NCBI GenBank assembly: GCA_963540065.1
Contig: CAUTNK010000006.1
Span: forward strand, 50,766-114,765
From: an uncultured Bacteroidia bacterium
GTDB lineage: Bacteria; Bacteroidota; Bacteroidia; Bacteroidales; CAJPTX01
Length of the DNA: 64,000 bases
Direction: 5' to 3'
Shown here: piece after piece, positions 435-33,543 of the stretch
Position numbering within the stretch: position 1 is the first letter of the stretch
How the letters are laid out: each line of letters begins with the position of its first letter
The notes under the pieces: model-generated
What the model was told of the DNA's origin: nothing
Database searches by the model: none
The model's input: the letters and a program-made list of their open reading frames with translations, nothing else
Program-made: the position numbers and the translations under genes

Positions 435-824
435 ATGGATGTGTTAGAAATCCCCAATACTGCGAAAACTCCACAGATTAGCTTAAATCCCGACGGGAGA
501 CTCTTCTTCAGCGGAAGATCTATCCCAGAGAACTCCATCGAGTTCTACAGACCCGTTATGGATTGGTTGACCGAGTACGCTAGAGATGCTCAACCGCTCA
601 CCGTGGTCGAAATGCGATTTGAGTATTTCAATACGAGCTCCTCTAAATGTATCCTCGACGTCTTTAAGCGACTAGGCATGATACACGATCTCCCCGGAAA
701 GGAAGTGCAGGTAAAATGGTATTTCCTTAACGAGGACGAAGACATGTACGAGTCGGGGAATGACTACAGTACTATCGTAAAAATCCCATTCGAACTGATT
801 GCTACCTCCTCGGAAGAGGCTTAG
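435..824 (+). CDS. DUF1987 / SiaC-family regulatory phosphoprotein
   Basis: 129 aa. It carries the family hallmarks TPQISLNPDGRLFFSGRSIPENSIEFYRPVMDWL, YFNTSSSKCILDVFKRL and VKWYFLNEDEDMYESGNDY. Confidence 0.8.
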   Translation: MDVLEIPNTAKTPQISLNPDGRLFFSGRSIPENSIEFYRPVMDWLTEYARDAQPLTVVEMRFEYFNTSSSKCILDVFKRLGMIHDLPGKEVQVKWYFLNEDEDMYESGNDYSTIVKIPFELIATSSEEA

Positions 825-850
825 AAGTACCTGTATGGGCACTTCTTTAT
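823..850 (+). terminator. Possible weak rho-independent terminator after the SiaC-like gene
   Basis: Hairpin AGAAGTACC / GGCACTTCT (one A.C mismatch, 6-nt loop) followed by TTATCTTT. Confidence 0.35.
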
Positions 851-1044
851 CTTTGTAGCGTGAGTTTGTTACAAAGACCTGCGAACTGACTTCCGGAATG
901 TACACGAGCTGCTACTGTAGGAGGGGATAAGCTCAGCAGTAGTGTTTGTCGCGCGTTCGTACGTCGGGAAGTTAGGCTTGCGGTGTTGGTGAGATATCGG
1001 GGTAGGTTCGGAGTGCATTACCCAAAGAAAAGATCGCAGAGGCG

Positions 1045-4000
1045 GTGGAGAAGCTAGACTTCAAGCACTTACTAGTGCAAGTAGCGGATTTACCTCAGGT
1101 GGGCGCTATTGCCCAGTGTAGACTCCAGCAAACGTCCTCGCGATTGTATGGTGTTGTTGGCTCGTGGCTTTCGTGTGTAATAGGGGCAGAATGTCTCTAC
1201 GCGTCGAGACAAACGACCTCACCTACTCCCTTTTGTTCATTACTTATTTGTCAGGATCATGATACAGCTGCGCATATCTATACCGAACTGAGTGCGTGGC
1301 AGTTGCCGTCGGAAGTTCATCTGTTTCCGTCTTCCTATCGTGGTCGTGTCCTACCTGCCAATATGCAGGCTGAGCGTATTGTACAACGAAACGAGACCCT
1401 ACTAAATCTTACAAAAGCAACCTCGCAAGCGCATATTGTTATAACTTACGCTGAGGCACTTGCTGAGAAAATTGCATTACAAAATACACAGGACGAAAAT
1501 AAAAAGTCGCTAAAACAAGGCGATGAACTAGATAGGGAACTCCTGATCGAAGAGCTCGAGGCTATGGGTTTTACGCAAGAGGAGTTTGTCTACGAACCCG
1601 GACAGTATGCAAGGCGTGGGGCTATTTTAGATGTCTTCTCCTATGCCGATTATTACCCTTACAGAATAGACTTTTTGGATAATGAGGTAGACTCTATCAG
1701 GCGTTTCGATGCCGATTCGCAGCGATCTATAGAAATCCTACAAGAGGTAACTATCGTCGGCGCATTAAAAGAAGAACCAGATGCTACACAATCACTTACC
1801 TCAGTGCTCCCTCAAACGCAAACCCTCCTCTGGCTCCCAGAGCTAAAGGCTGTAAAAAAGCAGTATAGCGACGTTTATACAGAAGTGGACGAAGAGCTCA
1901 ACCCATATTTCGCCTCGCCTACCGAATGGGAAAATACTCTGGATGCTTTTACGTGCTTAGAGTTTGATACAGTAGAAACGCCACAAAAAGGGGAAGCGAC
2001 GATCGCCTTTCGTACCAAACCGCAACCGGTCTTTCATAAAAATTTCGACCTCCTCGCCGAAACACTCCACAAAGAGCACACCTGCGGCCATACTACCTAC
2101 ATATTTGTCGAGCAGCCCTCGCAAGTGGAGCGTTTGCAAAATATTCTCAAAGATCACAACCTCCAAGCAGGCGAGGACTATACGTTGGTACAAGCCCCCA
2201 TTTATCGCGGATTTATGAGCGAGGAACTAGGGCTAAACTTCTTTACCGATCACGAGATCTTGGAACGGTTCCATGCCTATCATCTAGCTAAGAAGCTTTC
2301 CCAAAGGGATGCCCTAACCCTCACCGAGTTACAACACCTCAAACCAGGCGACTATGTTGTGCATGCCGACTACGGAGTGGGCATTTTCGAAGGGCTTATC
2401 ACACACAGAAAAGATGGCGTAAACTACGAACTGGTGCGCTTATCGTATCGCGATCGCGATTCGCTCCTGATGAGTGTACATAGTCTCGATAAGCTATCTA
2501 AATACCGATCGAGCGACGATACCCCACCCACTCTAAATAAACTAAATTCCAGTGCCTGGAACAAGCTAAAAGCAAAAACCAAAAGGCAGGTTAAGGATAT
2601 CGCGCGCGATCTGATCCAACTCTACGCACAACGACGTGCAAAAGAGGGTTTCGCCTTTTCTACAGATACCTATCTACAAGAAGAATTGGAAGCCTCTTTT
2701 CAGTATGAGGATACCCCCGATCAGTTAGCTACTACACTGGCAGTAAAGCGCGACATGGAAAAGAACATCCCCATGGATCGTCTTATCTGTGCCGATGTCG
2801 GATTTGGAAAGACCGAAATCGCTATCCGAGCAGCATTCAAAGCAGTTTGCGATAGTAAGCAGGTGGCAGTGCTTGTTCCAACTACCGTGCTCGCGCTACA
2901 GCATTTCAGAACTTTTTCACAAAGACTTGCCCAATTCCCGGCACGGGTCGCTGTCCTTTCTAGGTTGCAAACAGCCAAAGAGCAGAAACAGATTATTGCC
3001 GAACTCGCCGAAGGGAAAATAGATATACTCATAGGTACACACGCCTTGTTGCGCTCTACAGTGCAGTTTAAGGATTTAGGCTTGTTGATTGTTGACGAGG
3101 AACAAAAATTCGGAGTTGCTGCTAAAGAGCACTTAAAAAATATGCGCACTCAGATAGATACGCTTACCCTCACGGCAACTCCCATTCCACGTACTCTACA
3201 GTTCTCGCTAATGGGTGCTAGAGATATGTCGGTAATAGCTACGCCGCCGCCCAACCGGTACCCTATCGAGACGCAAGTTATGACTTTCGAGCCCGAGCGG
3301 ATTGCACAAGCTATTCGATTCGAAATTCAACGCGGAGGGCAAGTCTACTTTATCAACAATCTGGTGCAGAACCTATCGGTAATTGCCGCAAGACTCGAGG
3401 AGCTCATACCCGAGATCCGAATAGCTATTGCACATGGGCAGATGCCTGCTAAAGACCTCGAAGCGGTAATGCTCGACTTTATGAATGCCGATTACGACCT
3501 ACTACTGTGTACCTCCATTGTAGAAGCGGGTCTCGACATCCAAAACGTTAATACCATCTTTATAAATAATGGCAACCACTTCGGACTGAGCGATTTGCAT
3601 CAACTCCGTGGACGGGTTGGGCGCTCCGATCGTAAAGCGTATTGCTATATAATTATTCCCGCAACAGAACTCCTAACGCCAAGTGCGCAAAAACGATTGA
3701 GAGCTATTGTCGATTATTCCGATCTGGGTAGTGGCATGAGTCTGGCTATGCAGGATCTGAATATCCGTGGTGCTGGCGACTTGCTTGGTGCCGAGCAGAG
3801 TGGCTTTATTGTCGACCTAGGTATCGAGACCTACTATCGTATCCTAGACGAGGCGGTAGAAGAGCTCAAACAGGAAGAATTTGCCGAGCTCTTTGAAGAA
3901 GAGAAAAAACAAAGCTATCGCATTCCAGAATGTGTGGTAGATGGTGATCTACCGCTCTATCTCCCCACAGAGTACGTGGAGAGCACACCAGAGCGATTAA

Positions 4001-4374
4001 GCCTCTACAGAAGGCTCACAAACATACACACCAGCGAGGAGATCGATGCTTTTACCGAGGAGTTGGAAGATAGATTTGGTCCGTTACCACCAGAAGCTAC
4101 CGAACTCCTGAAAATCCCGCAACTAAAATGGACAGCGAACGCCCTCGGGATTCAACGAATACAGTTCCAGAACCATGTCATGATCCTGCAGTTCGTAACG
4201 CCTATGTCCTCGCCATTCTATGCAAGTGCTACTTTCGGGAATGTGCTGAAACAGATATCTACCTTTGGGAATCGCGCGCAGATACGTCAAACGGAATCGC
4301 AACTGGCATTTGTGGTAAGAGACATTCACTCCGTCGCCGACGCACAAAATTTGTTAAACGAACTGGCATCGTAA
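1045..4374 (+). CDS. mfd: Transcription-repair coupling factor Mfd
   Basis: 1109 aa with a GTG start. CarD-like segment (LKPGDYVVHADYGVGIF), helicase motifs (GFGKTEIAIRAAF, VDEEQKFGV, TATPIPRT, QLRGRVGR) and a C-terminal TRCF domain. Confidence 0.97.
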   Translation: MEKLDFKHLLVQVADLPQVGAIAQCRLQQTSSRLYGVVGSWLSCVIGAECLYASRQTTSPTPFCSLLICQDHDTAAHIYTELSAWQLPSEVHLFPSSYRGRVLPANMQAERIVQRNETLLNLTKATSQAHIVITYAEALAEKIALQNTQDENKKSLKQGDELDRELLIEELEAMGFTQEEFVYEPGQYARRGAILDVFSYADYYPYRIDFLDNEVDSIRRFDADSQRSIEILQEVTIVGALKEEPDATQSLTSVLPQTQTLLWLPELKAVKKQYSDVYTEVDEELNPYFASPTEWENTLDAFTCLEFDTVETPQKGEATIAFRTKPQPVFHKNFDLLAETLHKEHTCGHTTYIFVEQPSQVERLQNILKDHNLQAGEDYTLVQAPIYRGFMSEELGLNFFTDHEILERFHAYHLAKKLSQRDALTLTELQHLKPGDYVVHADYGVGIFEGLITHRKDGVNYELVRLSYRDRDSLLMSVHSLDKLSKYRSSDDTPPTLNKLNSSAWNKLKAKTKRQVKDIARDLIQLYAQRRAKEGFAFSTDTYLQEELEASFQYEDTPDQLATTLAVKRDMEKNIPMDRLICADVGFGKTEIAIRAAFKAVCDSKQVAVLVPTTVLALQHFRTFSQRLAQFPARVAVLSRLQTAKEQKQIIAELAEGKIDILIGTHALLRSTVQFKDLGLLIVDEEQKFGVAAKEHLKNMRTQIDTLTLTATPIPRTLQFSLMGARDMSVIATPPPNRYPIETQVMTFEPERIAQAIRFEIQRGGQVYFINNLVQNLSVIAARLEELIPEIRIAIAHGQMPAKDLEAVMLDFMNADYDLLLCTSIVEAGLDIQNVNTIFINNGNHFGLSDLHQLRGRVGRSDRKAYCYIIIPATELLTPSAQKRLRAIVDYSDLGSGMSLAMQDLNIRGAGDLLGAEQSGFIVDLGIETYYRILDEAVEELKQEEFAELFEEEKKQSYRIPECVVDGDLPLYLPTEYVESTPERLSLYRRLTNIHTSEEIDAFTEELEDRFGPLPPEATELLKIPQLKWTANALGIQRIQFQNHVMILQFVTPMSSPFYASATFGNVLKQISTFGNRAQIRQTESQLAFVVRDIHSVADAQNLLNELAS

Positions 4375-4380
4375 AAAGCA

Positions 4381-5112
4381 ATGCGTGCGCTGTTACTAGA
4401 TATTGGCAATTCGCGAACGAAAGCAGCAATACACGACTCGCAAAAGCTGATCGATTTCATTACCTTCGATAAAAATCAGTATGAGTCTATCTTGCAGTAT
4501 GCCAAAGAATTCCGAGCTGAGGCTTGCTGTTTTTGTAATGTTGGAGACTTGGACGAACGTTTTGTTGAGAAGCTGCAAGCTGGTTTTGCAGTATGTCATC
4601 AGGTGACTCCCGCGAGTTGTCTCCCTTTCCAACACGAAAAAGGCGCTATTTATGCAACTATGGGGAGCGATCGGATCGCAGCTCTTGCGGGAGCCTATAT
4701 TCGTTTCCCGAATCAAGCGACGCTATTGGTAGATGCGGGATCGGCTATAACCTACGATTTCTTAGACGATAAGGGTTTTTATAAAGGAGGGCTCATTACG
4801 GCTGGTCTTCGCATGCGTCTGAAAGCCTTGCATGAATTTACAGCAAAGTTGCCATTAGTAGATATCCCAGATAGCAGGTCTAGCGAGCTCTTGGCAACCG
4901 ATACCCAGCAAGCTCTACAAGCGGGTTGTGTCGCTGGGCTTAAGGGCGAATATCAGTATATTGCGAATTATCTTACAACCAGATATAGCAGTTTTCAAAC
5001 CCTACTTACGGGCGGCGACGCTCAATCCCTTGCAAAATTCTATCTTTGTAGAAACTTTATACCCAATCTAGTCTTGGAGGGCTTGTATGGTTTGTTGCAA
5101 TGTAATTGTTAG
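4381..5112 (+). CDS. coaX: Type III pantothenate kinase
   Basis: 243 aa. Motifs LLLDIGNSRTK, MGSDRIAA and VDAGSAITYD are typical of CoaX. Confidence 0.9.
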   Translation: MRALLLDIGNSRTKAAIHDSQKLIDFITFDKNQYESILQYAKEFRAEACCFCNVGDLDERFVEKLQAGFAVCHQVTPASCLPFQHEKGAIYATMGSDRIAALAGAYIRFPNQATLLVDAGSAITYDFLDDKGFYKGGLITAGLRMRLKALHEFTAKLPLVDIPDSRSSELLATDTQQALQAGCVAGLKGEYQYIANYLTTRYSSFQTLLTGGDAQSLAKFYLCRNFIPNLVLEGLYGLLQCNC

Positions 5113-6382
5113 AGCATGGCAAAAAGGGGGGCTTGCTTTTGCGCTATTCTTTTGTATTAATGCGCTATCTGCCCAAGTTACTAATACCAATTCGCCGTAC
5201 TCGAGGTTCGGACTAGGTGATCGGGAAGTTGTTGGTTACAGCAAATCGCAAGCTATGGGCGGTATTGCGTACGGACTGCGAGACAAAAATTATATCAACG
5301 CTGCCAATCCGGCTGCCTTTTCTTCGCAGGACTCCCTGTCGTTTATTTTGGAAATGGCCTTTAAGGGGCGTTATATGCTTGCGCAATCGCAGAATGATAG
5401 CCGCAAGAATGTGGCAGCTAATGTGCACCATGTGGCGATGCAGTTCCCGATCTGGAAGTACTTCGGGATGGCTATCGGCTTTCAACCCTACTCGCAGATG
5501 GGTTTTGATGTTGTCAGGTACGAGACGCGACGCGAGATCTTGAGTAAGATTGGCAACATCCGCTACAAGCATCACGGTTATGGCGGACTTAACGAGGCTT
5601 TTGGCGGATTAAGCTACAAGCCCCATAAATTGATTGCTGTAGGAGTTAATTTCCGTTTCCTTTTCGGTGCGCTTAATTTTTCGCAGAATGCCTACGTCCC
5701 GCACAACGCCTTATATGCCGATATCCGTTACGATAATAGGCTAGTGCTACGTGGCTACGGTATTACTTCAGGCCTGCAGGCGGCGATACCCTTCTCGGAT
5801 ACAAAACTCTTACGCCTAGGTGCGGTGCTGGAGCTTGTCCCTAAGTTGGTTGCCGAGCGTAGGCTAGATATCTCGCAGGTCTATCTCAACAATGCTATGC
5901 GAGTAGCGTACAATTCGAAAGCGGGCGTAGAGGAGCTGAAATATCCTATGCGCTTCGGAGCTGGACTCTACTATCAATCTGAACGAATAAGCGGCGGATT
6001 TGACTTCTCTATGCAGGACTGGTCGGCATTTCGTATGCCCGGTTCTGATCAACAAAATGCAGCAACTATAACATTAAATGCTGGTTTGCAGTGGATACCA
6101 AATCCGAGCGACTTGCGTTTTTATATGAAACGCGTCCATTACCGTTTGGGAGCTTATTTTACGCAGTTGCCAATGCGCATTGGTGAGAACCGATTGCAAG
6201 AAATAGGCTTTACCTTCGGGCTCGGGTTACCGTACAAGTACACGGGCTCTACCTTCCACACTACTTTTCGTTTCGGAACGCGTGGGAATACCTCCAATGG
6301 GCTACTGCGTGAGTTCTATTCAGAACTTATCCTTGGCGTCTCGCTCAACGACGTCTGGTTTGTGAAAAGAAAATTTCAGTAA
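5087..6382 (+). CDS. Outer-membrane beta-barrel (porin-like) protein
   Basis: Signal peptide (GLAFALFFCINALSAQ), an NSPYSRFGLGD motif, alternating beta-strand pattern and a C-terminal aromatic residue (KRKFQ). It sits in the conserved coaX-lptC neighbourhood. The start overlaps coaX by 26 nt and is uncertain. Confidence 0.6.
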   Translation: MVCCNVIVRAWQKGGLAFALFFCINALSAQVTNTNSPYSRFGLGDREVVGYSKSQAMGGIAYGLRDKNYINAANPAAFSSQDSLSFILEMAFKGRYMLAQSQNDSRKNVAANVHHVAMQFPIWKYFGMAIGFQPYSQMGFDVVRYETRREILSKIGNIRYKHHGYGGLNEAFGGLSYKPHKLIAVGVNFRFLFGALNFSQNAYVPHNALYADIRYDNRLVLRGYGITSGLQAAIPFSDTKLLRLGAVLELVPKLVAERRLDISQVYLNNAMRVAYNSKAGVEELKYPMRFGAGLYYQSERISGGFDFSMQDWSAFRMPGSDQQNAATITLNAGLQWIPNPSDLRFYMKRVHYRLGAYFTQLPMRIGENRLQEIGFTFGLGLPYKYTGSTFHTTFRFGTRGNTSNGLLREFYSELILGVSLNDVWFVKRKFQ

Positions 6383-6392
6383 TACAGAAACC

Positions 6393-6400
6393 TAAATTTG
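6393..6400 (+). promoter_or_regulatory. Candidate -7 box TAAATTTG
   Basis: Perfect TAnnTTTG only 8 nt before the ATG at 6408, which would give a near-leaderless mRNA. Confidence 0.3.
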
Positions 6401-6407
6401 AGTAACT

Positions 6408-7760: not shown

Positions 7761-7831
7761 AGGGTACTGCGAACTTTTCGGTGTTATTATGCCGCCATAT
7801 CTGTTAGGTGGCTGAAGTGCGATAATTGACG

Positions 7832-8470: not shown

Positions 8471-8670
8471 GACTCTTTCAAATCGTTTTAGAAATTATAT
8501 GGTGCCTCTTGGGTGCCGTTTGTTTGTATCTGGGCTTTACTCGCCTCTCGGCGCCCGGACGGGTATCGCTGATCTTTTTTATACTTGCTGCGATTGCCTT
8601 TTTGATGGCATTCTTCCGGAATTATACCCGAAGAAAAAGAGAACAACGCGAGAAGAGACTATCCGAATAA
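8467..8670 (+). CDS. Small two-TM membrane protein
   Basis: 67 aa with two hydrophobic helices and a basic tail (RRKREQREKR). Its ATG overlaps the lptC stop (ATGA), suggesting translational coupling. Confidence 0.4.
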   Translation: MRLFQIVLEIIWCLLGAVCLYLGFTRLSAPGRVSLIFFILAAIAFLMAFFRNYTRRKREQREKRLSE

Positions 8671-16119: not shown

Positions 16120-16135
16120 CATATACCAGTACACC

Positions 16136-23390: not shown

Positions 23391-23960
23391 ATGGCTACTA
23401 CTGCTGATTTCAGAACCGGGATGTGTATCGAGTTTAATGGTAAACTCTACGTCGTGACCTATTTTCAACACGTAAAGCCCGGGAAAGGTGGCGCTTTCGT
23501 ACGGACAAAATTGAAAAACCTAGAAACGGGGCGTACCCTCGAAAATACTTTTAATGCTGGGGTTAAGATAAATCCTATCCGTGTTGAGACACGCCCCTAT
23601 CAGTACCTATACAAGGACGACCTCGGTTTCCATTTCATGCATAGCGAGACCTTTGAAGAGATTTACCTAGATCCCGCCCTCATCGAAAATAGCGACCTAT
23701 TGAAGGATGGGCAAGTTGTACAAATGCTCGTTCATGCCGACGAAGAGCGTATCCTGACCTGCGAACTCCCGCCATTTGTAGAGTTAGAAGTAACCTACAC
23801 AGAGCCCGGAGTACGTGGCGATACAGCATCTTCTACAGCATTAAAGCAAGCGGAGTTGGAAACCGGAGCTATTGTCAACGTACCACTTTTCATTGTATCG
23901 GGCGAAAAGATTCGAGTGGATACCCGCACCCGCGAGTATTCCGAACGTGTTAAGGTCTGA
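23391..23960 (+). CDS. efp: Elongation factor P
   Basis: 189 aa. The motif [17 protein letters not shown] and three OB-like domains. Confidence 0.97.
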
Positions 23961-24066: not shown

Positions 24067-25338
24067 ATGACTGTCTTGGTTGGGCGTGCGCGTTCTAGTT
24101 CGCAGGACGAGCGTCTGAAGCTAAATCTACTGAAGTTAAAGGCGCTCTTGGACTATACCTCGGAGTTCGGTTTCGATAACTCCGCCGAGGGATTGCTGCG
24201 CCGCTTTAAGAAGATCTTGGAAGAGGATCTCGATATCAATCGCATCCTATACTACTTTCGGGTTGAAGATCAGTGGCGGCTCCTCCTCAACGTGAATTGT
24301 AGCGAGGAAGATGTGTCGGTGATCGATGCAGAACAGATCTTAGCAGCATATACTAGGACTACGATCGTAAGTAGCACCACTACCGTAGGGTTGCGCGAAA
24401 TAGATCTGATCATCCCCGTTTTACAGGGCACGGAGCCGCAAGCTTATGTTTTGTTGGGCGATACTAACGATAGGGTAAGAGGCGTTAGCCCCATCATTAT
24501 GCATTTGATGTTTGCGCAGACCCTTACCTATCTCTCCTACATAGGATTGCGAAATTTGTATGCTATCGAACGACAGAAGCTCGAAACGGAGATTAAAAGT
24601 CAGCTCGCACTAGCTGCCAACCTGCAACGCTCTTTTATCATATCTTCCGACCGACTCCCTAAAATGAAGGGCGTGAAGATTGCGACTTGGTACCAACCGT
24701 TCTATGAAGTGGGGGGCGACTATTTCGATTTTATCGATCTTAACGGCGAAGAGTTGATGTTTTGCGTCTCCGACGTCTCAGGGAAAGGAATCCCAGCCTC
24801 GTTGCTGACAGCAAATTATCAGGCGCATTTTAAGGCACAAAGCGCTGCTGGGGTGCCGCTAGAGGTTATCGTAAGCAAGCTGAACAGACTGGTTTTTGCT
24901 GTTGCGCAGGAGTCAAGTTCCTACATTACATCGTTTATTGGGCGTTACAATACTCGCACACACCTTTTGGAATACGTTAATCTGGGTCACAATGCCCCCT
25001 ACCTCTACGATATGCAGACCGGGCAGGCGCGGCAATTACATTCCGATACCGTGGCGCTGGCTATGCTGGAAGAACTACCCGAAATAAACGTATCGAAAAT
25101 GCTAATACAAGATTCGACCATGCTCCTATGCTATACCGACGGGGTTACTGAGTGGCGAATTAACGGGCGGGAGGTAACAGGATCCGGATTCCTGATAGGT
25201 CTTTTGCATCGATATAAGGATCCCCGTTCGTTGGTTGCTGCTATTTCGTCTAGGATGGAGCATGACGAGTATCTGGGGCTGCGTGAGACTTTTGACGATA
25301 TATCGATTGTTGCTCTAAAATTCTCTCCTACCGAGTAG
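24067..25338 (+). CDS. PP2C-family (SpoIIE/RsbU-type) Ser/Thr phosphatase with an N-terminal sensor-like region
   Basis: 423 aa. C-terminal SpoIIE domain motifs are YEVGGDYFDF, FCVSDVSGKGIPASLL, LGHNAPYLY and CYTDGVTE. The N-terminal ~180 aa is GAF-like. Confidence 0.85.
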   Translation: MTVLVGRARSSSQDERLKLNLLKLKALLDYTSEFGFDNSAEGLLRRFKKILEEDLDINRILYYFRVEDQWRLLLNVNCSEEDVSVIDAEQILAAYTRTTIVSSTTTVGLREIDLIIPVLQGTEPQAYVLLGDTNDRVRGVSPIIMHLMFAQTLTYLSYIGLRNLYAIERQKLETEIKSQLALAANLQRSFIISSDRLPKMKGVKIATWYQPFYEVGGDYFDFIDLNGEELMFCVSDVSGKGIPASLLTANYQAHFKAQSAAGVPLEVIVSKLNRLVFAVAQESSSYITSFIGRYNTRTHLLEYVNLGHNAPYLYDMQTGQARQLHSDTVALAMLEELPEINVSKMLIQDSTMLLCYTDGVTEWRINGREVTGSGFLIGLLHRYKDPRSLVAAISSRMEHDEYLGLRETFDDISIVALKFSPTE

Positions 25339-25339
25339 T

Positions 25340-25831
25340 ATGCCGGATCTCCCCACAACGACGCCAAAGGAAATCCCAGAAGCTATCCGGCGTTTTATAG
25401 ACGAGCATCATGTCCTTACGCTCTCAACCTCGGTAAACGAGGAGGCGTGGTGTGCGCATTGTTTTTATGTGTTTTTGCCGCAGTATAGCTGTTTTATATT
25501 TGCTTCCGATTCTGCTACAAAACATATGCAACAGATTTGTCACAACTCATTTGTTGCAGCGAGTATTGTGCTGGAGAGCGAGACTGTTGGGGTTTTGCGC
25601 GGATTGCAAATACAAGGCTCTGTATTTCAGTTATTAAGCTCGATAGAAAAGGAAGCGCAACGTGCCTATATCAAACGTTTCCCGCTGGCCAGATTAATGG
25701 ATCTACACCTGTGGCAGTTGGACGTTACTTACTTTAAATTTACGGATAATAGGCTCGGTTTCGGAAAAAAAATCGTCTGGCAACGTGAAGCAGAATTTTT
25801 CGAAAAGTGGGAGCGATTGCAAGATAGGTAG
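25340..25831 (+). CDS. Pyridoxamine 5'-phosphate oxidase-like (YhbP-type) FMN-binding protein
   Basis: 163 aa. The pattern HHVLTLSTSVNEEAWCAHCFYVF resembles UPF0306/YhbP split-barrel proteins. The start lies 2 nt after the preceding stop. Confidence 0.55.
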   Translation: MPDLPTTTPKEIPEAIRRFIDEHHVLTLSTSVNEEAWCAHCFYVFLPQYSCFIFASDSATKHMQQICHNSFVAASIVLESETVGVLRGLQIQGSVFQLLSSIEKEAQRAYIKRFPLARLMDLHLWQLDVTYFKFTDNRLGFGKKIVWQREAEFFEKWERLQDR

Positions 25832-25878
25832 CGTTAGGAGCCTTGCGAAATTAGCGAAGCCTTCGAGGGTGTGTCAAT

Positions 25879-28611
25879 ATGAAAACAGGGCACTCTTCGT
25901 ATTCTAATTTTTCGATGCCCTACCTTTCGCCTCTTGCGCAAGAACTCCAAACGGGAGTTATGACGGGAAACAGCGCCGATCAACCACCCCCCATCTCTTC
26001 CCTCAAGCAACTAGCGCTCCTGATGGCGGGCAAAGCGCAACTGTTGGCACGCTCGATTAGTGCAGTTCTTGAGGACGAACAGAGTAAAACCGCTCAAAGC
26101 CTCTTGCAACAAATCTCGCGTATGAAGACGGTGTTGCGAAGAGATATATCGCACACCGAGTTCGCCGATTGGTACGCCCAAACCCTCATCTACGGCTTGT
26201 TTGCAGCGCGCTATCATGCACCTGATATACAAGAGTTTACCAGAGAAACCGCGGCAAAACAGATCCCTCGCAGCAACCCTTTTCTGCGCAAACTCTTTCA
26301 TTATTTGGGTGCTTTGGATTTGGATGAACGCCTCCTTTGGATTGTTAACGATTTGGTTGCAATCTTTGCTTTAACCCCTATTACAGAGCTTTTTACGGAC
26401 TCGTTGCGGTTGCATAAAGACCCCGTCATGCTCTTCTACGAGGACTTCCTAACAGCCTACAATCCGGTGCGGCGCAAGGCTCGCGGGGTTTATTACACGC
26501 CCGCTCCGGTGGTCGAGTTTATGGTGCGTGCCGTGGACGAGATCCTGATCCGCGATTTCGGCATGCGCGAGGGATTAGCCGACTGTAGTTTTTTGCCCGA
26601 TAAAAGCCACGTACACCGCCTTCAGATACTGGATCCTGCTACGAGTACCGGAACGTTTTTGGTGGAAGTTGTGCGGGCAATACATCGCAAGTTTGAAGGT
26701 CGTCAGGGCGTTTGGAACGACTACGTTAGAGAGCACTTGTTGCCTCGCCTCCACGGCTACGAAATCCTGATGGCACCTTACGCGATGGCGCATCTCAACC
26801 TAGATCACGTTCTTCACGCGACGGGGGCAACGGAACTTGGCAATGCACGCTATGGAATCTATCTGACGAACACTCTCGAGGCGCAGCACCCTGAGTCCAA
26901 CGGCTTGTTTCCGATTGATACCGAGGCGAATGCAGTCAATGCTCTTAAGTGCGATCGCCACGTAATGGTGATGATCGGCAACCCTCCGTACAACGTCAGC
27001 TCGTGCAACAAAAATCAATGGATCGAGGCGCTGATGCAGAGCTACAAAGCGGGTTTGAACGAGAAGAACATCATGGCGCTGTCGGACGACTACATAAAGT
27101 TTATTCGTTATGCGCAGTATCAGATCGAACGTACGGGGGAGGGCGTCGTTGCATTCATCACGAACAATAGCTTTTTGGACGGGGTCATCCATCGCCAAAT
27201 GCGTAAAGAGCTTTTGCGCGTGTTTGATATTATTTACATAGTTAATCTTCACGGTAACAGTCGGTTAAAGGAGAAGACTCCGGAGGGTGGCAAAGATGAA
27301 AATGTGTTTGATATTCAGGCTGGTGTGAGTATTGTTATTTTAGTTAGGAATCAGGATTCTGGGGCGTCACAAACACCGCAAATTCTTTACAGTGAGGTCT
27401 TTGGCGATCATGCGATAAAGAGAAATTATCTCGAAGTATTGCGTATAGCGCGTGATAGTTGGAAACGCTTAACTCCGGTTGCGCCGTATTATTTCTTTGT
27501 GGAAAAGGATTTTGCACTACAGCAGGAGTACGATAACTTCTTTTCGCTGAGCGAGTTATTCGAAACGTATGCTGTGGGAGTGAAAACGCATCGCGACTCG
27601 CTTGTAGTGCATTATACTCGCGGGGAGTGTCAAAAATTGCGCGATGACTTCTTAACACTACCGGGAAGTTCGCTTTGTGCTATTTATACAATACCGCCCG
27701 ATGTTCGCGATTGGACGTTGTCTCGTGCTCTAGCGGATGTAGCGGCTGCTGAGCAAGCGCACGAAGGGCAGATAATTCGGTATAGTTTCCGCCCGTACGA
27801 CTGTCGGCATCTTTATTACACCGGGAAAACGAGGGGCGTGGTATCCTATCCCCGATTTCATCTTTTGGGCGCCTTACTATGCCACGAGAATTATGCTTTG
27901 TGTACGACACGTATTATGCGGGAGAACGATTTTCAGCATAATTTTTTAACGCGAGGGCTGCCCGACAAGGCATATATTTCGGACACGACGTTTACTTTTC
28001 CGCTTTACAAATTCCGCGAAGGTTGGGATTATACTCCGGCAGAAATTGTAGCTGGAGTGACAAAGGAAGGAAAACTGATAGAACTGGAGCTCAACATGCG
28101 CTCAGAAATTCTAGCTAAAATAAGCAAAACAATAGGCGAACCTGTAAAAGGCGAGGACGTGTTTGATTACATCTACGGCGTGCTGCATGATGAGGAGTAC
28201 CGCACGAAATACTTTGAGTTTCTGAAAATAGAATATCCACGCATCCCCTACCCAAAGGATAAAGCAGATTATCAGCGCTTTGTGAGTATAGGAGGATACC
28301 TCCGTCGTTTGCATCTGATGGACGAAAGCTTGGACATCCCGCACACCACAACCTTCGATGTGGCAGGCACCAACCTTGTAGAATGCGTTCGTTATGACGA
28401 AGCAACGAGACGCGTCTGGATCAACGACACGCAGTATTTCGGAGCAGTACCTCTTGCAGTTTGGAATCACTGGGTGGGCTCGTATCAGCCGGCAAGGTTG
28501 TGGTTGCAGAAACGAATCGGTCGCACGCTCAACTACGAAGAGGTCTGCTGGTACCAACGCGTAGTGGATACCATTGCCGAAGAGCTGCGGTTTAGAGCAA
28601 CAAAAGGTTAA
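25879..28611 (+). CDS. N6-adenine DNA methyltransferase with a Type ISP-like C-terminal specificity domain. No nuclease or helicase domain is present.
   Basis: 910 aa. It carries FADWYAQTLIYGLFAARY (a PglX/MmeI/Type ISP-type N-terminal helical motif), LDPATSTGTF (SAM motif I), IGNPPYNV (motif IV), and a C-terminus typical of Type_ISP_C (IYGVLHDEEYRTKYFEFLKIEYPRIPYP ... VWNHWVGSYQPARLWLQKR). Confidence 0.85.
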   Translation: MKTGHSSYSNFSMPYLSPLAQELQTGVMTGNSADQPPPISSLKQLALLMAGKAQLLARSISAVLEDEQSKTAQSLLQQISRMKTVLRRDISHTEFADWYAQTLIYGLFAARYHAPDIQEFTRETAAKQIPRSNPFLRKLFHYLGALDLDERLLWIVNDLVAIFALTPITELFTDSLRLHKDPVMLFYEDFLTAYNPVRRKARGVYYTPAPVVEFMVRAVDEILIRDFGMREGLADCSFLPDKSHVHRLQILDPATSTGTFLVEVVRAIHRKFEGRQGVWNDYVREHLLPRLHGYEILMAPYAMAHLNLDHVLHATGATELGNARYGIYLTNTLEAQHPESNGLFPIDTEANAVNALKCDRHVMVMIGNPPYNVSSCNKNQWIEALMQSYKAGLNEKNIMALSDDYIKFIRYAQYQIERTGEGVVAFITNNSFLDGVIHRQMRKELLRVFDIIYIVNLHGNSRLKEKTPEGGKDENVFDIQAGVSIVILVRNQDSGASQTPQILYSEVFGDHAIKRNYLEVLRIARDSWKRLTPVAPYYFFVEKDFALQQEYDNFFSLSELFETYAVGVKTHRDSLVVHYTRGECQKLRDDFLTLPGSSLCAIYTIPPDVRDWTLSRALADVAAAEQAHEGQIIRYSFRPYDCRHLYYTGKTRGVVSYPRFHLLGALLCHENYALCTTRIMRENDFQHNFLTRGLPDKAYISDTTFTFPLYKFREGWDYTPAEIVAGVTKEGKLIELELNMRSEILAKISKTIGEPVKGEDVFDYIYGVLHDEEYRTKYFEFLKIEYPRIPYPKDKADYQRFVSIGGYLRRLHLMDESLDIPHTTTFDVAGTNLVECVRYDEATRRVWINDTQYFGAVPLAVWNHWVGSYQPARLWLQKRIGRTLNYEEVCWYQRVVDTIAEELRFRATKG

Positions 28612-28615
28612 CTCG

Positions 28616-28623
28616 TAACTTTG
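28616..28623 (+). promoter_or_regulatory. Candidate -7 box TAACTTTG
   Basis: Perfect TAnnTTTG 16 nt upstream of the ATG at 28639. Confidence 0.45.
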
Positions 28624-28638
28624 TAGAAAATTTTCGCA

Positions 28639-29217
28639 ATGGAGACCAGTTTTTTCGCACACGAGTCGGCTATTATCGACGACGGAGCAGTAATCGGTGC
28701 GGGGACTCGTATCTGGCATTTTTCTCATATCATGGGCGGAGTGCAGATCGGGCAAGAGTGTTCCATTGGGCAAAATGTGTTTATAGCCTCGGGGGTTACT
28801 TTAGGCGATCGCACAAAGGTTCAGAACAATGTGTCTATCTACACGGGGGTTACTACGGAGGCGGATGTCTTTCTGGGTCCTTCCTGCGTATTTACGAATG
28901 TTTGGAACCCCAGAGCGCACATACAACGAAAAGATGAATTCCGTGCCACACATTTAGGACGAGGCGTAACCATAGGTGCCAACGCAACCATAGTTTGTGG
29001 GCATACCATTGGCGAGTATGCTTTCGTGGGCGCAGGCGCTGTGGTTACAAAGGATATCCGTCCGTACGAACTGCTGGTGGGGAATCCGGCGCGTGTGGTA
29101 GGCTGGATGAGTAGATCCGGCGCTCGCTTGCAGTTCAAGCATCAGGAAGCTATTTGTCCGTTGAGTGGCGAGGTGTACCTAGTGGCGGATGGAATCGTAT
29201 TTTTGAAAGAGAATTAG
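28639..29217 (+). CDS. Left-handed beta-helix sugar N-acetyltransferase (WbpD/WlbB-like)
   Basis: 192 aa. Hexapeptide repeats throughout, with the motif VGNPARVVGWMS typical of UDP-2-acetamido-3-amino-2,3-dideoxy-glucuronate N-acetyltransferases. Confidence 0.8.
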   Translation: METSFFAHESAIIDDGAVIGAGTRIWHFSHIMGGVQIGQECSIGQNVFIASGVTLGDRTKVQNNVSIYTGVTTEADVFLGPSCVFTNVWNPRAHIQRKDEFRATHLGRGVTIGANATIVCGHTIGEYAFVGAGAVVTKDIRPYELLVGNPARVVGWMSRSGARLQFKHQEAICPLSGEVYLVADGIVFLKEN

Positions 29218-29224
29218 CAATAAT

Positions 29225-30523
29225 ATGCAGCCTATTTATGAAGCTCTAGCGCAAAAACAAGCAAAATTAGCAGTGATCGGTCTCGGTTACGTCGGGTTGC
29301 CGTTAGCTCTAGCTTTTGCTCGTCATTTTTCGGTTATGGGGTTCGACGTCAATGAATCAAGACTTGAGCAAATGCGACACTCCGAAGACCCGAGCAATGA
29401 GCTCCACGCCGAGGATTTCCGGGGTTGCGATATCCAATTTACGAGTTCGTTGGAACAACTTCGCACGGCACGTTTTTTTGTTGTTGCTGTCCCTACACCC
29501 ATCGATAGCTTTAATAATCCCGATCTGAAGGCGTTGTTAGCAGCGACACGTACAGTGGCAGAGGTTCTGAAAAAAGGCGATTACGTGTGCTACGAGTCAA
29601 CTGTTTATCCGGGCTGTACGGAAGAGGATTGTATTCCGCATCTCGCGACGGTTTCGGGTTTGCAGCCTACCGAGGATTTTAAGTATGGTTATAGTCCGGA
29701 GCGGATTAATCCGGGCGATCGCGAGCATACCCTGCACAACACGCAAAAGATAGTAGCTGCTTGCGACAAGGAAGCGCTTTCGGAGATTGCGAAAGTTTAT
29801 GAGACGGTGATTGAAGCAGGAGTCTATCGCGCCTCGTCTATAAAAGTGGCAGAGGCTGGGAAGATTATTGAAAATACGCAGCGTGATGTCAATATTGCCC
29901 TGATGAACGAACTTTCGATAATTTTCGGTCGCCTAGGCATCAACACGTACGACGTCCTAGAGGCTGCTGCTACGAAGTGGAATTTTCTACCCTTCTCGCC
30001 TGGGTTGGTGGGTGGGCATTGCATTGGTGTCGACCCATACTATCTGGTACATAAGGCGAAAGAGCTTAAGTATCATCCGCAAATTATTACTGCTGGCCGT
30101 TTTATTAATGATTCGATGGGGGGCTACATTGCCAAAAAGGTGGTGAAGCGACTCATCCGGAAAGGGAAAGCCATACTCGGGGCGCGTGCTTTGGTGCTAG
30201 GTATCACGTTCAAGGAAAATGTGGCAGATATCCGGAATTCGAAGGTAGTGGATATTATCAACGAGCTTAAGGATTTTGGGATTTCGGTAGAGGTGGTCGA
30301 TCCAAGAGCCAATACCGAGGAAGTGCAACACGAGTACGGTCTCACGCTACAAAAAGCCCCGACGCCTAGGTACGATATGATTATCCTTGCTGTTGCGCAC
30401 GACGAATACCGTAACTGGACAGAAGACTATATCCGAAGCCTAGGGAATGCAGATCTTCTCTTTGTCGATGTAAAGGGCGTGTATCGCGGAAAAATTACTA
30501 GTTTGGACTATTGGAGTCTATAG
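29225..30523 (+). CDS. Nucleotide-sugar 6-dehydrogenase (UDP-GlcNAc/GalNAc dehydrogenase type, WbpA/WbpO/TviB-like)
   Basis: 432 aa. Rossmann motif (AVIGLGYVGLPLA), catalytic Cys context (GGHCIGVDPYY) and the C-terminal UDP-binding domain. Confidence 0.9.
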   Translation: MQPIYEALAQKQAKLAVIGLGYVGLPLALAFARHFSVMGFDVNESRLEQMRHSEDPSNELHAEDFRGCDIQFTSSLEQLRTARFFVVAVPTPIDSFNNPDLKALLAATRTVAEVLKKGDYVCYESTVYPGCTEEDCIPHLATVSGLQPTEDFKYGYSPERINPGDREHTLHNTQKIVAACDKEALSEIAKVYETVIEAGVYRASSIKVAEAGKIIENTQRDVNIALMNELSIIFGRLGINTYDVLEAAATKWNFLPFSPGLVGGHCIGVDPYYLVHKAKELKYHPQIITAGRFINDSMGGYIAKKVVKRLIRKGKAILGARALVLGITFKENVADIRNSKVVDIINELKDFGISVEVVDPRANTEEVQHEYGLTLQKAPTPRYDMIILAVAHDEYRNWTEDYIRSLGNADLLFVDVKGVYRGKITSLDYWSL

Positions 30524-30645
30524 GCTATAAAAACGCGCGTACGAGCCTCCAAAACCCCTAAAACATGAAAAGAAACATCGCGGCGCATGTAGTTGGATAC
30601 CTTCCCAGTGTTTCAATAGTGCTGTTGGCGGAGTGTGGGAGCTAA

Positions 30646-31893
30646 ATGTTTGGGGAAAGGTATCGTTTTGTGCGTTCGTTGCTCACGCTAGGTGTGGGTA
30701 CCTCTTTTGCGCAACTTATTCCGATACTTTTCTATCCCGTCCTTTCGCGACTGTATACCCCATCCGAGTTCGGCGACCTCGCTCTTGTAGTGGCTCTTTA
30801 CGGCGCTTTAGCCTATTTGTTAGATTTACAGTACGAGCGCGGAATTCTGATCCAAGAGACGCAGCGCAATCTGTTCAATTATGTTATTCTGTGCGTGTGG
30901 CTTGCGCTCGTTATGGCTGTTCTGCTATTTCCTATCCTTACGCTGTTGTGGTACGTGGGCGTTTTCCCGTCCAGTATATCTTTCCTGTGGATAGTTTTTA
31001 TTGTCGTAAACGGGTTGTTGTATACACTTTATAATATTCACATTGAGTGGTGTGTCCGCGAGCGTTTTTTTCGATCGGTTTCTGTGCAGCGTTTTTCGAA
31101 TGCGACTACTACCTCGTTGTTCAAACTAGGTTTTGCCTATTGTCCTAGCCTGAAGAGTGGCGGGCTGATTTACGGAGATCTCCTTTCGCGCCTTTTTGTA
31201 GCATTGATGGCAATAGGGCATTTTGTGCATAAACAACACAAGTACTGGTCTTTGTTTTCGCGAAAACGGACGTTTGCGCTTCTGTATCGGTATCGGGAGT
31301 ATCCGAAATATTGGGTTTTGGGAACATTCTTGTACGACCTAGCGCCCGTCGTGTTCCTTATTCTTTTTATGCGCCGTTTCGGAAATGCCGATGCGGGGCA
31401 TTATTCCATGGCACTACTTTTGCTTAGTGTACCGATTACGCTGCTGGGCAAGGCGCTTTCCGATGCTTTTCGCTCGCAGGCGCAAGAGCTCTATAGGGCA
31501 AGTGGTTCTTGTGCTGATTTTTATAGGCGTACGATGCGTTTTTTTTTGCCCCTTACTGTCCTGATGAGTCTTGCGGGGTATTTTCTTTTACCGTTAGTGA
31601 TTCCGTATATTCTAGGTTCGCAGTGGCTATTGGCTTCCAAGCTTAGTGCAATATTGGCTTTAGGTCTTTTGTTACAGATTGCGAGTATGATTGCAGCAAC
31701 ACTTTGGGTTATTACGCATAGGCATCGGGAACAACTGTTTTTTCAACTGTTTTACTTCCTATTTTATGTAGTGCCGCCCTGTTGTGTGATGTTTTTTGGA
31801 TGCGATACTACGGTTACTATTTGGACTCTCGCCCTGAGTCTGCTCTCATACCATATAGTGCTGATTCTGCGGGGATATATCTTAGCCAAGTAG
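30646..31893 (+). CDS. Polysaccharide flippase (Wzx / PST family)
   Basis: 415 aa, polytopic membrane protein. The N-terminal pattern is GVGTSFAQLIPILFYPVLSRLYTPSEFGDLAL. It contains a T9 run at 31539-31547. Confidence 0.8.
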   Translation: MFGERYRFVRSLLTLGVGTSFAQLIPILFYPVLSRLYTPSEFGDLALVVALYGALAYLLDLQYERGILIQETQRNLFNYVILCVWLALVMAVLLFPILTLLWYVGVFPSSISFLWIVFIVVNGLLYTLYNIHIEWCVRERFFRSVSVQRFSNATTTSLFKLGFAYCPSLKSGGLIYGDLLSRLFVALMAIGHFVHKQHKYWSLFSRKRTFALLYRYREYPKYWVLGTFLYDLAPVVFLILFMRRFGNADAGHYSMALLLLSVPITLLGKALSDAFRSQAQELYRASGSCADFYRRTMRFFLPLTVLMSLAGYFLLPLVIPYILGSQWLLASKLSAILALGLLLQIASMIAATLWVITHRHREQLFFQLFYFLFYVVPPCCVMFFGCDTTVTIWTLALSLLSYHIVLILRGYILAK

Positions 31894-31907
31894 CTTAGCG
31901 TACGCGA

Positions 31908-32732
31908 ATGTCTGGAATAGAGAATTTCGAAGTCTACGGGCGACACTTTTTAGTATACTTCGGCGATCTGTCGCAGATGCAATTCCGTACCCCCGACGAA
32001 CTCCGGGGTTGGTGCAATTGCAAAAAGGTGTTGGGCGTGGCGAACCCCTACGATTTTGATTGTGATAGCAAAACCTCATATTGGTATGTTCTTCAGGATC
32101 GTTTTCGCGAGATAGCGGAGTACGAAAGCACTAACACACGCAGAAAGATTCGCGGCGCTCTTGCTAGGTATCGTTTCGAGCTAGTTAGCAACGATGTCAT
32201 GCTACAGTTGGGTTACTCTATCTACTGCCAAGCATTTCAGCGTTACGCATTGCGTCCGCCGCTTACGGAAGCTAAATTCCGCCAACAGCTCAGAGAGCAA
32301 ATGGTCTATGGTGAGAATTATTGGATGGCCTTTGATAACGATTCGGGGCGCCCAGCTGCTTATATTTCGGTTCTGGTACGTGGTAGAAGTGTTTTTATGA
32401 ATTTTGAACGGCTGAGTTCTGATTTTACGCAACACTCGCCTATCTACGGTTTTATCTACACGCTTACCGAATACTACCTTCGCGATCGCGGCTATTTGTG
32501 GTTAGTGTCTGGTGCGCGTACGGTTCGTGAGCATTCGAAGGTACAGGAGCAAAAAATTACTCGCTTGCAATTCCGAAAAGCCTACTGCCGCTTACAACTA
32601 GAACTTGTTCCGTGGTTGCGAATAGCTACTCGCCTGCTTTACCCGTTTCGTAAGTTGTTGCGTTGGCAAAAGACCTTAACAGCATTTTTGAAACTCTACG
32701 AATATGCCGAAAAATCGCAAAGGGGAGGGTAG
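31908..32732 (+). CDS. FemAB-like / GNAT-fold (Acetyltransf_6-like) aminoacyl- or acyltransferase candidate
   Basis: 274 aa. The pattern NTRRKIRGALARYRFELV ... AAYISVLVRGRSVFMNFERLSSDF ... IYGFIYTLTEYYLRDRGYLWLVSG resembles FemABX-type GNAT domains. This is a motif-level assignment only. Confidence 0.45.
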   Translation: MSGIENFEVYGRHFLVYFGDLSQMQFRTPDELRGWCNCKKVLGVANPYDFDCDSKTSYWYVLQDRFREIAEYESTNTRRKIRGALARYRFELVSNDVMLQLGYSIYCQAFQRYALRPPLTEAKFRQQLREQMVYGENYWMAFDNDSGRPAAYISVLVRGRSVFMNFERLSSDFTQHSPIYGFIYTLTEYYLRDRGYLWLVSGARTVREHSKVQEQKITRLQFRKAYCRLQLELVPWLRIATRLLYPFRKLLRWQKTLTAFLKLYEYAEKSQRGG

Positions 32733-32841
32733 TGAGCTAGGTAATAAGCACCAATTTTTTGCTGCTTAACACCGGATCCCGATATTTTGTTTTTCGTGTT
32801 TCGAGTTTTTTTGATGTGCAGCGATCTCTTTACGATTTTAC

Positions 32842-32849
32842 TATATTTG
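32842..32849 (+). promoter_or_regulatory. Candidate -7 box TATATTTG
   Basis: Perfect TAnnTTTG 20-38 nt upstream of the candidate starts at 32869 (GTG) and 32887 (ATG). Confidence 0.45.
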
Positions 32850-32868
32850 TGCTACAGAAACAACTAGG

Positions 32869-33543
32869 GTGGTGAGTGACGGTGTAATGCACAGTCGGTT
32901 GGAACAGGATTTGAGTCGTGGCGAGGAGCCTATAGAGGTACTCGGCGAGCTACGATATTGTGGTATAATAGACCATCAGACCTTTGTGAATTTCGTGCAA
33001 ATGAGTCTGACAGACAACGAAAATTTACAACAACTCTTGGATTGCTATCAGGTCTATTCGCGTTCCTTTCATATTACGGTGGAGCTCATGCAGAACGTCA
33101 ATAGGCATGGTGCACGCTTGGGTACAGAAAAAATCATCAACGAACAACGCTCTTCCATAGATTCGCTAAATATGAATCCGTATCCGTGCTGGATATCTTA
33201 CGCGCTTTTGGTTACAGAGGCGGAGGTGATCATACGCTGTTCCAACTTTGTTGTAGAGGGCATGCGTGCGAAACTGGAAAAGAAACTCGGTAATAGCGAT
33301 CGGCTAACCCCCGAAGAAAGCCGAATCATCTACATGACACAACTCTCAACAGGAACCTTAAGCGAACGGGGGGGCGCTGGTCTTGGACTTATAGACGTCG
33401 CGCGAAAGAGCTCCGAATTCCGTTGGTGGTTTACACCGTATAATGACGAGAAGACGCTTTTTACGGTAGAATCGCGTCTTAATCGCGCCGATCTGAAAAG
33501 AAAGCAAGAAGAGTTCCGCGCTCGGATTGCTACAAAGAGATAG
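32869..33543 (+). CDS. SiaB-family (GHKL/RsbW-like) protein kinase
   Basis: 224 aa. It carries ITVELMQNVNRHG (N-box-like), ERGGAGLGLIDVARKS (G-box) and a C-terminal EKTLFTVESRL. The start may instead be the ATG at 32887. Confidence 0.75.
   Translation: MVSDGVMHSRLEQDLSRGEEPIEVLGELRYCGIIDHQTFVNFVQMSLTDNENLQQLLDCYQVYSRSFHITVELMQNVNRHGARLGTEKIINEQRSSIDSLNMNPYPCWISYALLVTEAEVIIRCSNFVVEGMRAKLEKKLGNSDRLTPEESRIIYMTQLSTGTLSERGGAGLGLIDVARKSSEFRWWFTPYNDEKTLFTVESRLNRADLKRKQEEFRARIATKR

Follow-up and report, generated by a model that had tools for sequence, protein, structure and literature searches.

The most informative result of this analysis is that Bacteroidota possess a minimal, conserved siaB-siaC operon without a cyclase gene, and that this operon has been pulled apart in the clade represented by a 64,000-nt stretch of DNA from an uncultured Bacteroidia bacterium (the whole stretch is referred to here as the window). 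The window encodes a SiaC-family (DUF1987) phosphoprotein of 129 amino acids (435-824, + strand), a predicted cytoplasmic Ser/Thr phosphatase of the PP2C/SpoIIE class with 423 amino acids (24067-25338, + strand), and a predicted, divergent SiaB-type (DUF6272) GHKL Ser/Thr protein kinase with 224 amino acids counted from a GTG start (32869-33543, + strand). We re-checked the open reading frame (ORF) coordinates of an earlier reading of this DNA, below called the original prediction, and confirmed all three ORFs at these positions; the family assignments proposed there were borne out by Pfam (PF09345, PF07228, and PF19788, respectively). The system to which these proteins are compared is SiaABCD of Pseudomonas aeruginosa (PA0169-PA0172), which consists of the PP2C phosphatase SiaA, the kinase SiaB, the DUF1987 phosphoprotein SiaC, and the diguanylate cyclase SiaD. 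In the window, the three genes are unlinked and lie at about 0.4, 24, and 33 kb. All three also occur on a single same-species scaffold from a metagenome (ERZ28638699 scaffold_81, the source of both L002 and L010).

We surveyed 80 siaC loci from GTDB species representatives (Bacteroidota) and several metagenomic contigs. Loci were annotated with hidden Markov models built during the analysis, and the neighbours of siaC were additionally subjected to an unbiased clustering. By automatic count, a DUF6272 kinase gene lies directly upstream of siaC and on the same strand in 74 of the 79 loci with enough upstream sequence; the two genes are separated by -11 to 74 bp (median 19 bp). Two of the five exceptions belong to the clade of the window (L011 and L012), and two others (L070 and L075) are ORF-calling artefacts, in which siaC was over-extended and the kinase gene is present. 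The fifth is a single ORF of 311 amino acids (L048:9422-10354, + strand) that matches Pfam DUF6272 at 42-174 and SiaC at 193-308, and is either a natural fusion or the result of a lost stop codon in a metagenome-assembled genome. Because of this near-universal adjacency, the kinase and SiaC families are tightly coupled in Bacteroidales-type and Flavobacteriales genomes. None of the approximately 80 loci has a gene homologous to the window PP2C (E<1e-3) at a distance of up to 10 kb from siaC, and the unbiased clustering of siaC neighbours revealed no cyclase family in this set. Since neither a PP2C nor a cyclase accompanies the pair, the unit in Bacteroidota is siaB-siaC and not siaABCD, and its ancestral, near-universal form in the phylum is a two-gene operon without siaA and siaD. 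The four-gene operon that the original prediction used as its reference is therefore not the appropriate yardstick for these genomes.

The separation of the two genes is confined to a small group of relatives. Besides the window and the contigs of the same species (L001-L006), the clade comprises L011, L012, and L091; the nearest GTDB species representatives are metagenome-assembled genomes with SiaC identities of 84% and 80%. In the sister lineage L092, whose SiaC is 61% identical to that of the window, the gene order is rlmL-siaB-siaC-mfd-coaX, and the genes beyond coaX are those of the window. In the window, L001-L006, L091 (70%), L012 (80%), and L011 (84%), siaC is likewise followed by mfd and coaX, and there is no kinase gene upstream; the upstream gene in this clade encodes an S9 peptidase wherever it was annotated. 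The siaC-like gene and the kinase gene of the window are about 32 kb apart. A tblastn search of the sequence 5' of siaC in the window clade for traces of a former kinase gene gave nothing above noise. As the sister lineage L092 retains the pair, the split is derived and specific to the window clade; it is recent, and the kinase gene left the locus after divergence from the L092 lineage. The original prediction had described the three components as dispersed, which holds for the window itself and does not extend to the group as a whole, where kinase and SiaC genes are adjacent outside the window clade.

The SiaC-like protein is readily recognized. It matches PF09345 with E=2.3e-35 and 121.3 bits (cut-off 24.5) over profile positions 1-119 of 120, and aligns with P. 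aeruginosa SiaC (PDB 6KKO_C/6K4F) over residues 3-122 with E=4e-16. Its score against the NCBIfam SiaC equivalog model NF038265 (83.6 bits) is under the cut-off of 150, by which it would be a member of the SiaC family and not a functional equivalog. In the alignment with P. aeruginosa SiaC, T67 (EYFNTSSSK) corresponds to the Thr of LLYLNTSSIK, which is the phosphosite T68 in the NTSS loop at the start of helix alpha2 (PMC7647112). By mass spectrometry, T68 of P. aeruginosa SiaC was shown to be a substrate of both the kinase SiaB and the phosphatase SiaA (PMC7647112). T67, the predicted phospho-acceptor of the window protein, is located in the invariant loop EYFNTSSSKCILD and is unchanged in an alignment of 20 Bacteroidota SiaC homologs; at 52-83% identity, these proteins share 46 invariant columns, including the whole E63-D75 loop. 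Compared with L012, SiaC is 80% identical, while the neighbouring Mfd and CoaX are 66% and 48% identical, respectively. Such conservation points to strong constraint on the SiaC-like protein.

Placement of the kinase in the SiaB family, as had been proposed, was supported by the Pfam threshold and by the predicted fold, whereas the NCBIfam family model did not reach its cut-off. The protein matches PF19788 (DUF6272) with E=3e-16 and 59.7 bits (cut-off 26.6). Against the NCBIfam model SiaB_fam_kinase (NF038262), it scores 53.9 bits (E=1.5e-14), under the cut-off of 85, and against the SiaB equivalog model 24 bits (cut-off 225); for comparison, siaC-adjacent kinases of relatives pass SiaB_fam_kinase at 104 and 154 bits. 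Structures were compared using single-chain AlphaFold2 models searched with Foldseek against the PDB. The top match of the kinase model (predicted local distance difference test, pLDDT, 72) was P. aeruginosa SiaB (6KKO_A, E=1.1e-5, TMt 0.59), the sole match with E<1e-3; anti-sigma-F kinases ranked next. The N-box E72-x-x-Q75-N76 and the Gly-rich ATP-lid G168-GAGLGL-174 are unchanged in all 14 aligned homologs (alignment A3). Close relatives start at the position that corresponds to M7, which makes the ATG at 32887 (218 amino acids), and not the GTG at 32869, the probable start. The kinases of the window clade carry an insert of about 15 amino acids (about 90-105) and a basic C-terminal helix.

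The kinase is 66-78% identical and SiaC 70-84% identical among relatives in the window clade, and we conclude from these values that both genes are maintained in the clade. Synonymous sites are saturated in the kinase and SiaC genes, so that no dN/dS ratio is obtainable for either. Compared with siaC-adjacent kinases of other species, the window kinase is 22-36% identical, and compared with the L092 kinase 28%. The median identities to other loci are 53% for SiaC and 26% for the kinase of the window, and 57% and 33% for those of L092; judged by these identities, SiaB-type kinases diverge faster than SiaC everywhere in the survey. We attempted to assign the window kinase to a DUF6272 subclass (siaC-adjacent, double-domain of 360 amino acids, or orphan beside an ABC-F gene). 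It is about equally distant from all of them, at 22-36% identity, and for this reason it may be read as an ortholog or as a paralog. Its features fit a relocated ortholog that would have undergone accelerated divergence after the move.

The kinase gene has a promoter-like box of its own. A TATATTTG box at 32842-32849 (+ strand), read from the sequence, is a candidate promoter of the kinase gene and lies within a 136-bp spacer that follows a gene of a glycan locus. Boxes of this type are called promoter-like here on the basis of TAnnTTTG, which we take to be the -7 promoter element of Bacteroidetes. The block AGTATATTTGTGC is also present upstream of the gene for a 72%-identical kinase in L173. 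Downstream of the window kinase gene is a gene for a secreted YD/RHS-repeat protein of 330 amino acids (33601-34593, + strand; PF05593, E=4.2e-11), which has a signal peptide with a hydrophobic N-terminus (KD 2.24). The kinase-YD-repeat pair is retained in L173 with 74% identity; the ORF that precedes the kinase there resembles no window protein. Since L173 keeps the box and the YD-repeat gene but not the preceding ORF, the attachment of the kinase gene to the glycan locus, to which the original prediction had drawn attention, is incidental. L173, which comes from a Bacteroidia relative, additionally encodes a protein of 553 amino acids with an MCP signalling domain beside the pair (L173:2365-4026), for which the window has no homolog.

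A candidate promoter was likewise found for the siaC-like gene. The S9 peptidase gene and the siaC-like gene are 259 bp apart, with a TATATTTG box at 208-215 (+ strand) in the interval, and the block GTTGTATATTTGTT is also present in the relative L011. A sigma-70 promoter scan found nothing. The leader had been singled out as long; most of its extra length is accounted for by a single-copy insertion of about 95 nt (approximately 243-340, + strand), which is absent from L011, L012, and L091 (alignment A4). A strong hairpin at 313-348 (GGTGCC...GGCAC; fold z-score -2.98) spans the 3' edge of the insertion. A search of the window against Rfam found just two tRNAs and no family match for the leader, which argues against a riboswitch, and the segment, judged by its absence from relatives, is not a conserved regulatory feature.

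The phosphatase has the fold expected for a partner-switching enzyme and a genomic setting of its own. It matches PF07228 (SpoIIE) with E=2.8e-31 and 109.4 bits (cut-off 25) over residues 228-419. The AlphaFold2 model (pLDDT 84.6) consists of an N-terminal soluble alpha/beta domain (about 10-135), a linker helix at 147-190 that is about 45 residues long, and the PP2C domain (196-420), and its Foldseek matches include RssB, Rv1364c RsbU, RsbX, SpoIIE, and the PP2C domain of SiaA (6K4E, TMt 0.79), with E between 1e-12 and 1e-10. The metal-binding motifs GGD(218), D236-G241, TDG(357-359), and DD(410-411) are invariant in 28 orthologs. The original prediction had regarded the protein as a SiaA-like phosphatase with a sensor-like N-terminus. 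Against the SiaA model NF038263, however, the protein scores 17.8 bits (cut-off 700) in a match limited to the generic PP2C stretch, and no membrane segment was found by hydrophobicity (maximum KD 1.33). By these measures, the window PP2C is not a SiaA ortholog. The profile of its N-terminal domain gave sub-threshold matches to 3O5Y, 9QQ6 (a NifA-type regulator), and 4MCW (E=0.04-0.17), all of them GAF-containing proteins; as none of these matches reached the threshold, we call this domain GAF-like only tentatively.

Full-length orthologs of the PP2C, including the N-terminal domain, are 30-47% identical and widespread in Bacteroidota, and occur in lineages carrying siaBC such as Tenuifilum and Fluviicola/Crocinitomicaceae. 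In a second survey of 80 metagenome loci, which brings the total with the siaC survey to about 160, an efp-size gene lies directly 5' of the PP2C ortholog in 69 loci. In the window, this neighbour is efp, encoding elongation factor P (23391-23960, + strand; EFP Pfam domains on a contig of the same species). On the other side, a gene of the YhbP family (PNPOx-like; 25340-25831, + strand; NF002900, E=1.8e-40, below cut-off) starts 2 nt past the PP2C stop codon, a pairing that is kept in the clade (L093 and L160), and the whole block psd-tig-clpP-efp-PP2C-yhbP is conserved in the window clade. In 16 of 33 PP2C loci (L111, L116, L147, L168, and others), a divergent, kinase-less SiaC paralog (127-156 amino acids) is encoded about 7 kb upstream of the PP2C gene, on the other strand. 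We considered a functional link of this orphan paralog to the PP2C and read the arrangement as lineage synteny instead, because six unrelated genes (fba, tolC-like, hlyD-like, tsaB-like, DUF3108, and efp) intervene.

We also searched for the output of the module. The window contains no GG[DE]EF motif in any of its six frames, and no GGDEF, EAL, or STAS domain was detected in the window ORFs scanned or annotated on the contigs of the same species; a search of the window for homologs of STAS proteins was likewise negative. The absence of a diguanylate cyclase from the window, as originally stated, is thus upheld, and, again in agreement with the original prediction, no output partner of the SiaC-like protein was recognized there. 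Outside the window clade, the sole neighbours of siaBC that are common to both orders are three genes located directly downstream on the opposite strand, tail-to-tail with the pair, although the two orders have entirely different upstream flanks (rlmL, 33 versus 0; methyltransferase, 1 versus 17). In L007 (8444-12888, - strand), this cassette comprises genes for an exporter of about 1030 amino acids with a TerB-like N-terminus, ABC_tran, and ABC2_membrane, a protein of about 140 amino acids with a signal peptide (p140), and a lipoprotein-like protein of about 300 amino acids without a Pfam or NCBIfam family (p300). The exporter is ABCG-like (TIGR00955, E=2e-79, below cut-off). The cassette was found at equivalent positions in L008, L019-L021, L030, L035, and others; the exporter is present in 34 of the 63 loci with enough downstream sequence and, counted by label, in 11 of 23 Flavobacteriales loci and 25 of 57 others. 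Weak ABC matches near some further loci were discarded as UvrA, ABC-F, or an MsbA-like protein.

A general role of DUF1987 proteins as modulators of adjacent proteins was proposed by the authors who described the structure of SiaC with SiaD (PMC8457831), and on this view the TerB-ABC exporter is the best candidate for a SiaC target in genomes carrying the cassette. It is conceivable, though on balance doubtful, that the Bacteroidota SiaB-SiaC pair acts as a c-di-GMP-independent regulator, the conserved target of which would be the exporter together with its two secreted partners, and in which SiaC would dock on the cytoplasmic N-terminal region of the exporter and gate the export of envelope or surface components, the efp-linked PP2C would supply a metabolic input, and the window clade would have been rewired. 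L092 is already without the exporter cassette. If this proposal is true, the module of the window clade has switched its target after losing the linkage to kinase and exporter.

For the window itself, we favour, with a slightly better than even chance, a working phospho-switch of the SiaB/SiaC type whose operon has been physically split. According to this reading, the DUF6272 kinase (32869-33543) would phosphorylate the SiaC-like protein (435-824) on T67, and the GAF-like PP2C (24067-25338), as the most plausible phosphatase, would remove the phosphate. The phosphorylation state would then decide whether SiaC binds or modulates its target, with the unphosphorylated form binding a target other than a cyclase, so that the output would not be c-di-GMP synthesis. 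The relocated kinase gene would have acquired or kept its own promoter-like box, travelled with the YD-repeat gene, and diverged faster than siaC while retaining its catalytic motifs. We hold the link between kinase and SiaC to be firmer, and that to the PP2C to be looser, than the reading as a whole: we infer the latter from the fact that the PP2C is of the right enzyme class and co-occurs with siaBC at a coarse level, which makes the assignment plausible. Several observations weigh against the split switch. The PP2C gene is never adjacent to siaB, siaC, or a DUF6272 gene in the approximately 160 loci, and STAS genes are common in related loci; STAS proteins are the classical substrates of PP2C phosphatases. 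The window kinase could be a paralog with a different substrate, given its 22-36% identity to other kinases and its score under the NCBIfam SiaB-family cut-off. Extra DUF6272 or SiaC paralogs occur in some Bacteroidales (L014, L025, and L082), and the remaining genome may contain another siaB or SiaC. Finally, homologs of the exporter, p140, and p300 were sought in the window and none was found, and the cassette is, where present, convergent with siaBC and not co-transcribed with it, and is missing from about half of the loci.

Several of these points are what would be expected if the three genes did not form one pathway at all. The PP2C, fixed beside efp, would then serve another substrate, for example anti-sigma antagonists of the STAS type; the kinase would have a new substrate or belong to the pathway of its YD-repeat neighbour; and SiaC would be an orphan or be served by a kinase encoded elsewhere. 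The high divergence of the window kinase, its clade-specific insert and tail, and the orphan SiaC and DUF6272 paralogs of other Bacteroidota agree with such an arrangement, as does the frequency of STAS genes. Nevertheless, we consider it unlikely, if well worth keeping in mind. The near-universal adjacency of kinase and SiaC genes and the one fused ORF argue that the two families cooperate, both proteins are conserved in the window clade and retain their catalytic and acceptor residues, and the kinase finds its best fold match in the SiaB chain of a SiaB-SiaC complex. Moreover, the extra divergence of the kinase is modest relative to the trend of the lineage, since even the still-adjacent kinase of L092 is only 33% identical to others.

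The fold of the kinase also raises the question of whether the switch acts on transcription, given that anti-sigma-F kinases follow SiaB among its matches. The SiaB-like kinase would in this case also act as an anti-sigma factor, for instance of the extracytoplasmic function (ECF) sigma factor encoded at 55574-56179, and unphosphorylated SiaC would free the sigma factor. Orthologs of this ECF sigma factor lie 4-7 kb from siaBC in eight loci; yet these are only 8 of about 80, the ECF genes adjoin uvrA in what looks like passive synteny, and no sigma factor gene is adjacent to siaBC in any surveyed locus. ECF sigma factors are normally paired with their own anti-sigma factors and not with GHKL kinases. 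SiaC is structurally related to STAS antagonists (PMC7647112, PMC8457831), but SiaB is not an anti-sigma factor in the one characterized system (PMC7647112), and we regard transcriptional control of this kind as improbable. Even less probable, to the point of being barely worth entertaining, is an output through c-di-AMP, in which the SiaC-like protein would regulate CdaA as SiaC regulates SiaD. The c-di-AMP cyclase gene cdaA noted in the original prediction is real (56352-57137, - strand; DAC and CdaA_N), its product is the only cyclic-nucleotide synthase in the window, and the L173 kinase gene lies about 5 kb from cdaA. However, the same block has been rearranged, which accounts for the latter proximity, the window cdaA is 23 kb away on the other strand, and cdaA does not occur within 10 kb of siaBC or PP2C genes in any of the approximately 160 loci, which leaves the hint at c-di-AMP unsupported. 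The known regulators of CdaA are CdaR and GlmM.

Compared with known systems, the split SiaB/SiaC-type switch that we favour is closest to SiaABCD. The SiaC-family protein of the window has its phospho-acceptor Thr in the matching position, its SiaB-type GHKL kinase is nearest in structure to SiaB, and its PP2C belongs to the structural class of the SiaA phosphatase domain; presumably, the two systems would also share their logic, a protein-protein interaction gated by phosphorylation. In contrast to SiaABCD, the window lacks SiaD or any other GGDEF protein, and the genes do not form a single operon, the ancestral form in Bacteroidota being just siaB-siaC. While P. aeruginosa SiaA is a sensor that is anchored in the membrane and has a periplasmic domain and HAMP, the window PP2C is predicted to be cytoplasmic with a GAF-like domain, and the SiaC and SiaB proteins of the window score well under the equivalog cut-offs (83.6 versus 150 bits and 24 versus 225 bits, respectively). 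The Bacillus switches RsbU/RsbV/RsbW and SpoIIE/SpoIIAA/SpoIIAB resemble the window in three components: the PP2C phosphatase carries a regulatory domain at its N-terminus, the Ser/Thr kinase is of the GHKL type, and a small antagonist is phosphorylated where a helix begins, the last being a prediction for the window. The window differs from them in that the antagonist is a DUF1987 and not a canonical STAS protein, the kinase belongs to DUF6272 and not to HATPase_c_2, and there is no genetic linkage to a sigma factor. Enzymes and not sigma factors are controlled by the partner switches HptB-HsbR-HsbA-HsbD of P. aeruginosa and BgrSTUWV-BgrR of Sinorhizobium, which are thus a precedent for regulation of an enzyme through direct contact with an antagonist-type protein (PMC8457831). 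Their outputs are diguanylate cyclases and their antagonists STAS proteins, whereas in relatives of the window the candidate output is an ABC exporter.

In the literature searched, SiaC/DUF1987 is so far understood through one system only, the output of which is a diguanylate cyclase, and we found no relevant account of DUF6272, the SiaB family, or partner switching in Bacteroidetes. Because Bacteroidota keep SiaC highly constrained without a linked cyclase, the family must have another class of targets in this phylum, which is dominant in gut, rumen, and marine communities. The pair siaB-siaC is the minimal conserved unit; TerB-ABC, p140, and p300 form a candidate effector cassette, and a single phylum-wide PP2C may act as a shared phosphatase. 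The window represents a natural experiment, in which the pair persists when unlinked.

A number of further observations were made on the siaBC families and on the window. Among the loci with paralogs, L025:2235-3772 encodes a protein of 379 amino acids in which the DUF6272 domain occurs twice, with a divergent SiaC after it, L082:5432-6354 holds an additional siaB-siaC pair, located 4 kb upstream of the main one, and L014:4649-5179 is an orphan DUF6272 gene beside an ABC-F gene. The ECF sigma factor gene of the window is on the - strand, the next ORF (54451-54939, 161 amino acids) belongs to no family, and an ortholog of the sigma factor gene lies about 4 kb from the PP2C gene in L160. Directly after the PP2C-yhbP pair, the window encodes a fusion of 910 amino acids resembling MmeI/Type ISP enzymes, with N6-adenine methyltransferase and restriction parts (25879-28611, + strand); synteny with relatives stops at this gene, which marks a variable region. 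Genes typical of mobile or defence islands are found at 44770-54291, among them those for a DUF4143 AAA ATPase, RhuM, and AAA-ATPase_like/PDDEXK_9, with a transporter and an M16 peptidase interspersed. A second surface-glycan cluster occupies 38081-44361 (- strand) and encodes an epimerase, a WG-repeat protein, a carbamoyltransferase, a tyrosine phosphatase (Y_phosphatase3), a radical SAM/SPASM enzyme, and a GT4 glycosyltransferase.

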